From positions 1 to 15,032 of the IMG/VR virus record IMGVR_UViG_2563366979_000002: DNA of 15,032 nt; one strand, given 5' to 3'. Made by a program: the position numbers and the translations under genes. Origin of the DNA: a virus. Its lineage: Duplodnaviria; Heunggongvirae; Uroviricota; Caudoviricetes. Every line of letters begins with the position of its first letter. Positions within the stretch are counted from its first letter, which is position 1. The notes below the pieces were generated by a model, which was not told the origin of the DNA, made no database searches, and was given only the letters and a program-made list of their open reading frames with translations. Positions 1,431-2,684 of the stretch are shown piece after piece.

Positions 1431-2489
1431 AATTTTGTCCCACTCCCTGCCTCTGTCATCACGATACTGTGATGCCATGGTGTCCGACTTATGCCCGAGA
1501 AGATGTTGAGCAAACTTATCGCTTATCTGCTTCTCATAGAGTCTTGCAGACAAACTGCGCAACTCGTGAAAGGTAGGCGGATCCCCTTCGAAGGAAAGAC
1601 CTGATGCTTTTCGTGCGCGCATAAAATACCTTGATACTGTGCCGGATGAAAGCGGTTCACGACGAGTAGATGCAATTATGGTTTCTCCGCCAAGAATCTC
1701 TTTGCATTTATCAAGTGTTTCCTTCATTGATATCCCGAGAGCATCAACATGCAATGTTGTAGGGATGGCAATTTTTACACCTGTTTTGCTTTGCTCGACA
1801 TAAAGATATCCATCTACGATATCAGACCACTTCATTTCGCATAAATCACCAACTCGCTGCCCGGTAACAACAGCCAGTTCCATTGCAAGTCTGAGCCAAC
1901 ATGGTGATGATTCTGCTGCTTGATAAATTTTCAGGTATTCGTCAGCCGTAAGTCTTGATCTCCTTACCTCTGATTTTGCAGCGCGAGTGGCAGCGACCGG
2001 GTTTATTGTTATATGGCCTTCAGCTATTGCCTCTCGGAATGCATCGCTCAGTGTTGATCTGATTAACTTGGCTGACGCCGCTTTGCCCTCGTCTATGTAT
2101 CCATTGAGCATTGCCGCAATTTCTTTTGTGGTGATGTCTTCAAGTGGAGCATCAGGCAGCCCCCTCCTTATTGCTTTAATTTTGCTCATGTAATTTATGA
2201 GTGTCTTCTGCTTGATTCCTCTGCTGGTGAGGATTTTTTCGTAGCGATCAAGCCATGAATGTAACGTAACAGAATTATCACTGTTGATTCTCGCTGTCAG
2301 AGGCTTGTGTTTGTGTCCTGAAAATAACTCAATGTTGGCCTGTATTGCTTCAGTGATTGCTATCCTCCTGTCTCGGCCTAATCCAAACTCTTTACCCGTC
2401 CTTGGGTCCCTGTAGCAGTAATATCCATTGTTTCTTATATAAAGGTTAGGGGGTAAATCCCGGCGCTCATGACTTCGCCTTCTTCCCAT
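1419..2489 (-). CDS. int: Lambda-type integrase (tyrosine recombinase), apparently intact
   Basis: 356-aa ORF; sequence MGRRRSHERRDLPPNLYIRNNGYYCYRDPRTGKEFGLGRDRRIAITEAIQ... matches lambda Int as I recall it nearly residue for residue; start overlaps the xis 3' end as in lambda. Confidence 0.97.
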   Translation of the reverse strand: MGRRRSHERRDLPPNLYIRNNGYYCYRDPRTGKEFGLGRDRRIAITEAIQANIELFSGHKHKPLTARINSDNSVTLHSWLDRYEKILTSRGIKQKTLINYMSKIKAIRRGLPDAPLEDITTKEIAAMLNGYIDEGKAASAKLIRSTLSDAFREAIAEGHITINPVAATRAAKSEVRRSRLTADEYLKIYQAAESSPCWLRLAMELAVVTGQRVGDLCEMKWSDIVDGYLYVEQSKTGVKIAIPTTLHVDALGISMKETLDKCKEILGGETIIASTRREPLSSGTVSRYFMRARKASGLSFEGDPPTFHELRSLSARLYEKQISDKFAQHLLGHKSDTMASQYRDDRGREWDKIEIK

Positions 2490-2684
2490 TTCTGATCCTC
2501 TTCAAAAGGCTACCTGTTACTGGTCGATTTAAGTCAACCTTTACCGCTGATTCGTGGAACAAATACTCTCTTCCATCCTTAACCGAGGAGGGAATATCCT
2601 GCACTCGCGTACCCATCGACGAACTGTTTCAAGGCTTCTTGGACGTCGCTGGCGTGCGTTCCACTCCTGAAGTGTCAAGTACAT
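2467..2684 (-). pseudogene. xis: xis (excisionase) with a frameshift: 218 nt instead of 219; reading frame stops after ~46 codons
   Basis: Minus-strand translation from ATG at 2684 gives MYLTLQEWNARQRRPRSLETVRRWVRECRIFPP then goes out of frame (RLRMEESICSTNQR, stop at 2541-2543); inserting one C into the run CCTCCTCGG (plus 2583-2591) restores ...PPPVKDGREYLFHESAVKVD..., which matches lambda Xis; the ORF track shows no intact 72-aa ORF here. Confidence 0.8.

Follow-up and report, generated by a model that had tools for sequence, protein, structure and literature searches.

In the 15,032-nucleotide stretch of DNA analysed here (the window; positions 1 to 15,032 of IMG/VR virus record IMGVR_UViG_2563366979_000002), the excisionase gene xis is interrupted by a one-base deletion beside an intact lambda-type integrase gene, and both genes belong to an att-bounded phage remnant. 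We consider it probable that the xis pseudogene is recent and strain-specific, within a defective remnant of 13.1 kb in which the frameshift represents neutral secondary decay and from which excision in trans could still take place. This is ordinary prophage decay, and both the gene and the type of element are known.

The lesion itself is small and well delimited. The pseudogene measures 218 nt, one short of the 219 nt of lambda xis (28860-29078), as the preliminary description of this DNA had claimed. Aligned over window positions 2440-2720 (minus strand) and positions 28833-29113 of lambda (NC_001416), the two sequences differ by seven substitutions and by a sole gap of one base, at which the window reads CCCTCCT-CGG and lambda reads CCCACCTCCGG. 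On the plus strand the deletion site is CCGAGGAGG, at 2583-2591 (in bracketed form, CCTCCT[C]CGG), which is where the preliminary description had put it. Its account of the reading frame also agrees with ours: the frame was said to follow lambda Xis for 32-33 codons and then to shift, and in the ORF at 2541-2684 (minus strand) we find 33 residues that are the same as in lambda Xis (MYLTLQEWNARQRRPRSLETVRRWVRECRIFPP), then RLRMEESICSTNQR and a stop at codon 48, so that the residual ORF has 47 codons. The C-terminal part of lambda Xis, VKDGREYLFHESAVKVDLNRPVTGSLLKRIRNGKKAKS, is found in another frame, inside an ORF at 2467-2616. The Pfam Exc family (PF07825) is likewise split, matching the first half of xis at profile positions 1-36 (E = 5.7e-18) and the second half at profile positions 32-77 (E = 6.3e-17); when the missing base is put back, the protein covers positions 1-77 of the profile (E = 3.9e-41) and matches the lambda Xis chains in the PDB. 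An uninterrupted Xis ORF of about 72 codons, with helices, wing and C-terminal tail, is not present, the frame shifting after codon 33, and the gene is, by prediction, a pseudogene of the PF07825 family and not a functional member of it. As one mutation only, the lesion is not a case to which a chance statistic applies.

The position of the break bears directly on what the shortened product could do. The C-terminal tail of lambda Xis recruits Int to P2. The recognition helix of Xis is placed in the major groove of DNA and its beta-hairpin wing in the minor groove, through Gly38-Glu40 and with Arg39 along the groove floor, and wing residues Asp37 and Glu40 mediate cooperativity between Xis protomers (PMC7145599). 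The 47-residue product is without the wing (D37, G38, R39, E40) and without everything beyond it. Since the frameshift after residue 33 removes both the wing and the C-terminal tail, the predicted product cannot act as a directionality factor. Self-directed excision by Int and Xis would be abolished, with a small practical effect.

The rest of the recombination module is well preserved. The preliminary description took int, downstream of xis, to be full length, and its 356-aa product confirms this: it is identical to lambda Int at 351 of 356 positions, without gaps, and all six catalytic residues (R212, K235, H308, R311, H333 and Y342) are present. The start of int overlaps xis by 23 nt, both genes lying on the minus strand, and the same arrangement is found in lambda. 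At attL, identity to lambda attP is 100% all the way from the core up to the stop codon of int, and the 15-bp core GCTTTTTTATACTAA occurs exactly at both 1331-1345 and 14451-14465 (expected by chance, 0.03). The P arm of attR is approximately 89% identical to lambda attP, with matches at 18/20 positions in P1, 19/20 in P2, 13/13 in X1, 12/15 in X2 and 15/15 in the core, and the attR stretch has no substitutions relative to the full-length relatives at loci L019 and L024. By its Int residues, cores and arm sites, this is a lambda-type recombination module, although X2, a putative Xis site, matches lambda less closely. From core to core, the element measures 13,120 bp and sits at attB-lambda between ybhC and ybhB, so that the window takes in the complete lambda attachment site of a single Escherichia coli isolate (Table 1).

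Table 1. Features of the window, in order of position.
Feature	Position	Strand	Description
ybhC, chromosomal flank, gal side of attB-lambda	1-1284	(-)	427-aa ORF; ybhC in matching E. coli records; Pectinesterase Pfam domain
attL	1331-1418	(+)	15-bp core GCTTTTTTATACTAA at 1331-1345, then lambda P' arm
int, lambda-type tyrosine integrase	1419-2489	(-)	356 aa, intact
xis pseudogene	2467-2684	(-)	1-bp deletion in run 2583-2591; intact alleles CCGGAGGAGG; based on lambda alignment, six intact relatives and Pfam Exc split over two frames
Residual ORF, 47 codons	2541-2684	(-)	Xis residues 1-33 and 14 out-of-frame residues
TTGC-N6-TTGC motif TTGCGTGTAATTGC	2697-2710	(-)	Directly upstream of xis ATG; same as lambda
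Terminator-like hairpin, orf55/xis interval	2715-2734	(-)	Two more at 2911-2930 and 2941-2962; consensus scan
orf55, homologue of lambda 55-aa gene upstream of xis (lambdap35)	2724-2891	(-)	55-aa gene called in all relatives
PerC-family gene, AT-rich moron-like insert	3462-3776	(-)	PF06069, E = 8.5e-15
dATP/dGTP pyrophosphohydrolase-DUF551 gene, 5'-truncated	4274-4692	(-)	125-aa ORF left of 217-aa gene
Large-deletion junction	4681-4693	(.)	Roughly 26 kb removed; junction sequence GTCTGGTTCGGCTGCGGCTTAAGGTTGAAG
DNA-circularisation (Mu gp43-like) tail gene, 5'-truncated	4729-5970	(+)	413 aa versus 442 aa in relatives; PF07157
Baseplate genes (Mu P/gp44, gp45, gp46, gp47/J, gp48-like), glycine-rich tail fibre, fibre assembly gene	5967-10980	(+)	ORFs and Pfam
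gtrC-like, gtrB (GT2), gtrA; O-antigen glucosylation cargo	11374-14107	(-)	PF00535 and PF04138; yfdH, yfdG in relatives
attR	14310-14465	(+)	P1 14310-14329, P2 14342-14361, X1 14359-14371, X2 14379-14393, core 14451-14465, then B' arm CTTGAGCG
ybhB, chromosomal flank, bio side	14556-15032	(-)	158-aa ORF; ybhB then bioA in relatives

By its gene content, the element is best described as a predicted mosaic of lambda int/xis/att, SfV-like (Mu-type) tail genes and gtrABC. The tail/baseplate block at 4681-9944 is 97.5-97.7% identical to Shigella phages SfI, SfII, SfIV and SfV, and five baseplate genes were counted in the block that ends at 10980. GC content is 38% over 3001-4000, around the PerC-family gene, and 33% over 11001-13000 in the gtr region, where the gtrC-like gene (485 aa) had no Pfam match. 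Neither the gene list of the window nor its Pfam matches included a repressor, an antiterminator, a cII-like gene, or genes for replication, lysis, head, sheath, tube or tape measure. The gene set of a complete, inducible prophage is not present; what was found is att-bounded phage DNA without essential phage functions, and we regard the element as a putative cryptic, or 'grounded', prophage remnant.

The missing functions would be accounted for by a single internal deletion, marked by a junction. To its left the window matches locus L002 up to position 4692, to its right it matches full-length relatives from position 4681, and homology at the junction itself is imperfect and limited to a few bases. 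The DUF551 gene that abuts it has a Pfam match beginning at profile position 45 of 97, and in full-length relatives encodes 217 aa. In a set of 5,426 complete E. coli genomes no sequence spans window positions 4681-4693, and scanning JGI metagenomes and also GTDB representatives for the junction gave no matches. Contig L010, from a metagenome (ERZ926427), has a gene for the same 125-aa product and was considered as independent evidence of the junction, but rejected, since its match ends at 4656, before about 4692; its first 121 nt are without a match to the window, and the contig is a different mosaic. A full-length relative occupies the same site in E. coli SCU-482, where approximately 40 kb separate ybhB from ybhC and all of the modules missing here are carried. 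At this site the phage has taken at least three other paths of decay. In loci L005 and L008 a different internal deletion (tail-fibre gene to early gene) left remnants in which xis is intact, and strain 2013C-4282 represents a third form of decay, in which an IS3 element truncates int and xis is gone.

The distribution of the frameshift allele is narrow. The window matches locus L025 (GCA_000352345.1, KB733040.1) with 100% identity between positions 1996 and 17027 of that locus, and a Logan contig of SRR640074, possibly built from the reads of the same isolate, shares the xis deletion and matches the window with 100% identity over 8,378 nt. All six other loci with an identical Int protein (from five isolate assemblies and a metagenome scaffold) carry the intact CCTCCTCCGG. 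Over 4,693 nt, four of these six differ from the window by 0-1 substitution in addition to the xis gap; L005 and L008 differ by the gap only, and L002 by the gap and one substitution. In the set of 5,426 complete E. coli genomes, the best matches (at least 99.2% identity) were all one base longer than the query and did not include the frameshift allele, an exact-pattern scan for that allele returned no matches in each of GTDB species representatives, JGI metagenomes and IMG/VR, and searches for the exact 47-aa and 49-aa ORF products found no such gene on record. Because the allele is absent from relatives and from these surveys, the xis mutation appears to be private to one isolate and very recent.

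An allele known from the data of one isolate only invites the suspicion that the true xis is intact, with 72 codons, and that the deletion is a consensus error of sequencing or assembly in a GC-rich motif. In the source assembly, a comparison with L004 and L005, which are clonal relatives, shows no substitutions over 9.3 kb yet two 1-bp deletions, both private, both in a GC-rich context (CCTCCT[C]CGG in xis and GCCGC[G]CCGCC in ybhI), and both breaking genes that are intact everywhere else (YbhI has 451 aa versus 477 aa). Two deletions without substitutions are an unusual pattern for real evolution. However, the separately built Logan contig repeats the xis deletion, which is at least not the error of one assembler, and the affected site is a CC dinucleotide rather than a long homopolymer. 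Moreover, the adjacent right 14.4 kb differ from L019 and L024 by four SNPs and no indels, which argues against an assembly that is generally prone to indels, and there are no indels in 2,276 nt compared with L005 and L008. An artefact is therefore in our view unlikely, and the xis pseudogene is very probably real.

The second private 1-bp deletion, in ybhI, lies 5.3 kb away and outside the window. A mismatch-repair mutator was considered as a source of both deletions and is not favoured, as neither lies in a homopolymer run and no transitions accompany them. The proximity of the ybhI frameshift should serve as a warning before either mutation is given a biological reading.

Taking the pseudogene as real, the history that would best account for the element starts with a temperate phage of roughly 40 kb (lambda int/xis/att, SfV-like tail, gtrABC) occupying the lambda attachment site. 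An internal deletion of approximately 26 kb would have joined a truncated DUF551-family gene to a truncated tail gene, presumably taking with it the immunity, regulation, replication, lysis, head, sheath and tube functions. The loss of one xis base would be a separate and very recent event, after which the product would end at 47 residues and the element would be left without an encoded working recombination directionality factor.

Under this history, it is doubtful that the frameshift silenced a gene that was still in use. Transcription of lambda xis starts only at pL and relies on N antitermination; for int there are two promoters, pL and CII-activated pI. The TTGC-N6-TTGC motif at 2697-2710 is what we take to be the CII site of the lambda pI promoter. 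Three terminator-like hairpins were detected upstream of xis on the xis strand, and a consensus scan of 1285-4900 found 12 terminator-like sites, compared with 3.0 +/- 1.9 in shuffled sequences, and seven sigma-70-like sites, which are not in excess (8.0 +/- 3.1 in shuffles) and so speak neither for nor against residual transcription. The region equivalent to the regulatory region of lambda (pL, N and CII functions) falls in the deleted part. Because this region is deleted and terminator-like hairpins stand upstream, xis was probably silent, and hence unexpressed, before the frameshift occurred, to the extent that lambda is a guide to a parent phage whose early region differed from its own. 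The remnant is unable to form phage regardless of xis.

The preliminary description had gone further and read the broken xis beside an intact int as an excision-locked prophage. The first half of this reading stands, in that xis is frameshifted next to an intact int; the second does not, as the element is a 13,120-bp remnant without essential phage functions and not a prophage that could otherwise leave. The 'irreversible' fixation invoked there is too strong a term, given that both att sites are intact and that Sp4 and Sp14, prophages of E. coli O157, are able to excise although their Xis is non-functional (PMC2669165). Nor does the retention of int count as evidence for a lock: the left 4.7 kb differ from relatives by 0-1 substitution, and int appears to be intact because there has been no time for it to decay rather than as a result of selection. 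The loss of a recombinase or an excisionase is nonetheless a recognised route to a 'grounded' prophage (PMC6379469), and in formal terms the element conforms to it. Here, L005 and L008 keep xis, and the element of 2013C-4282 has decayed through IS3, so that loss of xis was not needed for fixation; on these sequence comparisons, xis loss would seem to be neither necessary nor demonstrably causal for fixation at this site. Conversely, since Int, attL and attR are intact, a lambda-type Xis supplied in trans should excise the remnant, and such an Xis could come from a co-resident or superinfecting phage of lambda specificity.

A causal version of the lock would have the xis frameshift arise first, or be selected, trapping a prophage together with its gtrABC, with the large deletion following afterwards. 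The concept is established (PMC6379469), the sole difference from relatives over the 4.7-kb left arm does sit within the 219 nt of xis, and the gtrABC cassette is intact and could be advantageous. However, the sister remnants L005 and L008 have an intact xis and 2013C-4282 arrived at its state via an IS insertion, while no full-length prophage with the frameshift was found among the best matches in 5,426 E. coli genomes, or in GTDB representatives, JGI metagenomes and IMG/VR. A single mutation furthermore carries no statistical signal of selection, and excision by Int only is possible in prophages defective in Xis (PMC2669165), all of which leaves a causal role improbable. We are more sceptical still of a frameshift that served as a selected domestication step stabilising the gtrABC remnant against loss, in a clone whose siblings with intact xis are otherwise identical to it over kilobases, or of a frameshift-biased mutational process in the isolate as the source of the two private 1-bp deletions, 5.3 kb apart and unaccompanied by substitutions.

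It is also conceivable that Xis continues to be made from the broken gene, either through -1 ribosomal frameshifting programmed where the base was lost or in the form of two fragments that cooperate. Both halves do persist as ORFs, and this is the whole of what speaks for it. The codons at the site, TTC CCT CCT CGG, contain no slippery heptamer of the form X XXY YYZ, xis is a single ORF of 72 codons in all relatives, and programmed frameshifting was rejected on these two grounds. The second ORF begins at an ATG that the intact gene does not read in frame, and the frameshift separates the recognition helix from the wing within one small domain (PMC7145599). We attach almost no credence to the continued production of Xis, and neutral decay of xis in an already defective remnant is the reading we retain. 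For the wider use of such observations, a pattern of 'broken xis, intact int' calls for a judgement of how much prophage remains before a lock is invoked. The siblings of this 13-kb remnant were fixed by other routes, and the significance of the lesion extends little beyond annotation: xis at 2467-2684 should be recorded as a pseudogene, and the element as a defective SfV-like, lambda-att mosaic remnant with an O-antigen glucosylation cassette.

Comparison with known systems places the element among several familiar ones. The closest counterpart of the gene is lambda xis/Xis (PF07825; PDB 1PM6, 1LX8, 2IEF and 5J0N), which is the same gene in the same position, with the same 23-nt overlap with int. 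The first 33 residues are identical to those of lambda Xis, and the rest is identical at 38 of 39 positions after restoration of the frame; as it stands, however, the window is one base short, which puts the wing and the C-terminal part out of frame and leaves 47 rather than 72 codons. The classical lambda xis- lysogens of Guarneros and Echols-era genetics are complete, inducible prophages. Like these lysogens and like grounded prophages (PMC6379469), the element has an intact Int and intact att sites with a defective Xis, and is predicted to excise poorly. Unlike them, it retains only about one-third of the phage, and all that induction requires is gone. In Sp4 and Sp14 of E. coli O157 Sakai, which are lambdoid, Int is apparently intact and Xis is non-functional, and excision and circularisation have been shown experimentally (PMC2669165). 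These two prophages share the combination of intact Int and broken Xis with the element in the window, which is, however, far more degraded.

Outside the integration module, the nearest relatives are SfV, SfI, SfII and SfIV, which share both the tail/baseplate block (97.5-97.7% over 5.3 kb) and a gtrABC cassette adjoining the attachment site. SfV integrates at tRNA-thrW. In contrast to the Sf phages, the integration module in the window is that of lambda, at attB-lambda, and the gtrC-like gene is unlike theirs, matches to these phages ending at window position 9944. Lacking an SfV-type integration module, the element is a putative mosaic relative of the SfV-like serotype-converting phages and not a strict member of that group. 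A further likeness is to KplE1 (CPS-53) of E. coli K-12, in which expression of the recombination directionality factor alone suffices for excision (PMC3509656). KplE1 is also an E. coli prophage with an integrase, yfd-series genes and a directionality factor, and the homologues of gtrA and gtrB in the window are annotated as yfdG and yfdH; it differs in using IntS and TorI, in its integration site, and in having a directionality factor that is intact.

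Other strains show independent decay of the same attB-lambda prophage, as seen when L005 and L008 (locus 1-3796), two sister remnants, and L011 (NZ_CP027579.1), the corresponding locus of strain 2013C-4282, were compared with window positions 4681-9705. Both sister remnants have an intact xis and a tail-fibre gene (window position ~9705) fused to an early-left gene, while in strain 2013C-4282 int carries IS3 and xis is absent. The gtrABC genes were retained in all three.

In the window itself, imperfect homology at the junction of the ~26-kb internal deletion (GGCTGCGGCTT | AAGGTTGAAG) extends over just a few bases, which is consistent with illegitimate recombination rather than with an IS-mediated or homologous deletion. 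The 125-aa DUF551 ORF at this junction has an identical product encoded on L010, a short metagenome contig, and the two sequences part just upstream of the ATG of the ORF. Based on this shared product and the position of the divergence, the ORF may be a stand-alone gene in some phages rather than a product of truncation.

Features and compared regions of the prophage remnant, with window coordinates
Feature	Window position	Strand	Details
PerC-family transcriptional activator homologue	3462-3776	-	PF06069, E = 8.5e-15
L010	3831-4656 (region compared)		ERZ926427 metagenome contig, 946 bp
Junction of internal deletion	4652-4728		
Tail-fibre region	9643-11373 (region compared)		compared with L021-L023, L026 and L027
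gtrC-like membrane protein	11374-12831	-	485 aa

The PerC-family gene lies inside an AT-rich, moron-like stretch flanked by orf55 and the DUF551 gene, and has promoter-like sites of its own at 3875-3846 and 4109-4081. The gtrC-like gene likewise lies within a stretch of low GC content (33%). Its product has no Pfam match, but occurs with exactly this sequence in 586 blocks of the public collection; it is therefore a common, uncharacterised protein and a candidate O-antigen-modifying transferase.

The related loci compared across the tail-fibre region share an identical baseplate J protein with the window and have alternative tail-fibre and assembly cassettes with an invertase (Resolvase/HTH_7) gene at the flank, whereas the tail fibre of the window is fixed, glycine-rich, and without an invertase. 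An inverted assembly-gene fragment is annotated in relatives at the point where the assembly gene of the window ends.

Once the missing base is put back into the xis pseudogene (2467-2684), the protein it encodes has serine at codon 59 (Ser59, in TGSLLKR), the same residue as in PDB chain 1PM6, whereas the lambda reference genome encodes glycine (GGT GGC versus GGT AGC in the window). A second private 1-bp deletion was observed in the source assembly, GCA_000352345.1, at position 11223 of its locus (L006) in ybhI (context GACCTGCCGC[G]CCGCC), ~2.7 kb outside the window beyond position 1. YbhI is accordingly 451 aa long in this assembly versus 477 aa in all relatives, and there are zero substitutions over the same 9.3 kb between the assembly and its clonal relatives L004 and L005. 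This second deletion should be taken either as a warning about data quality or as an unusual mutational pattern.
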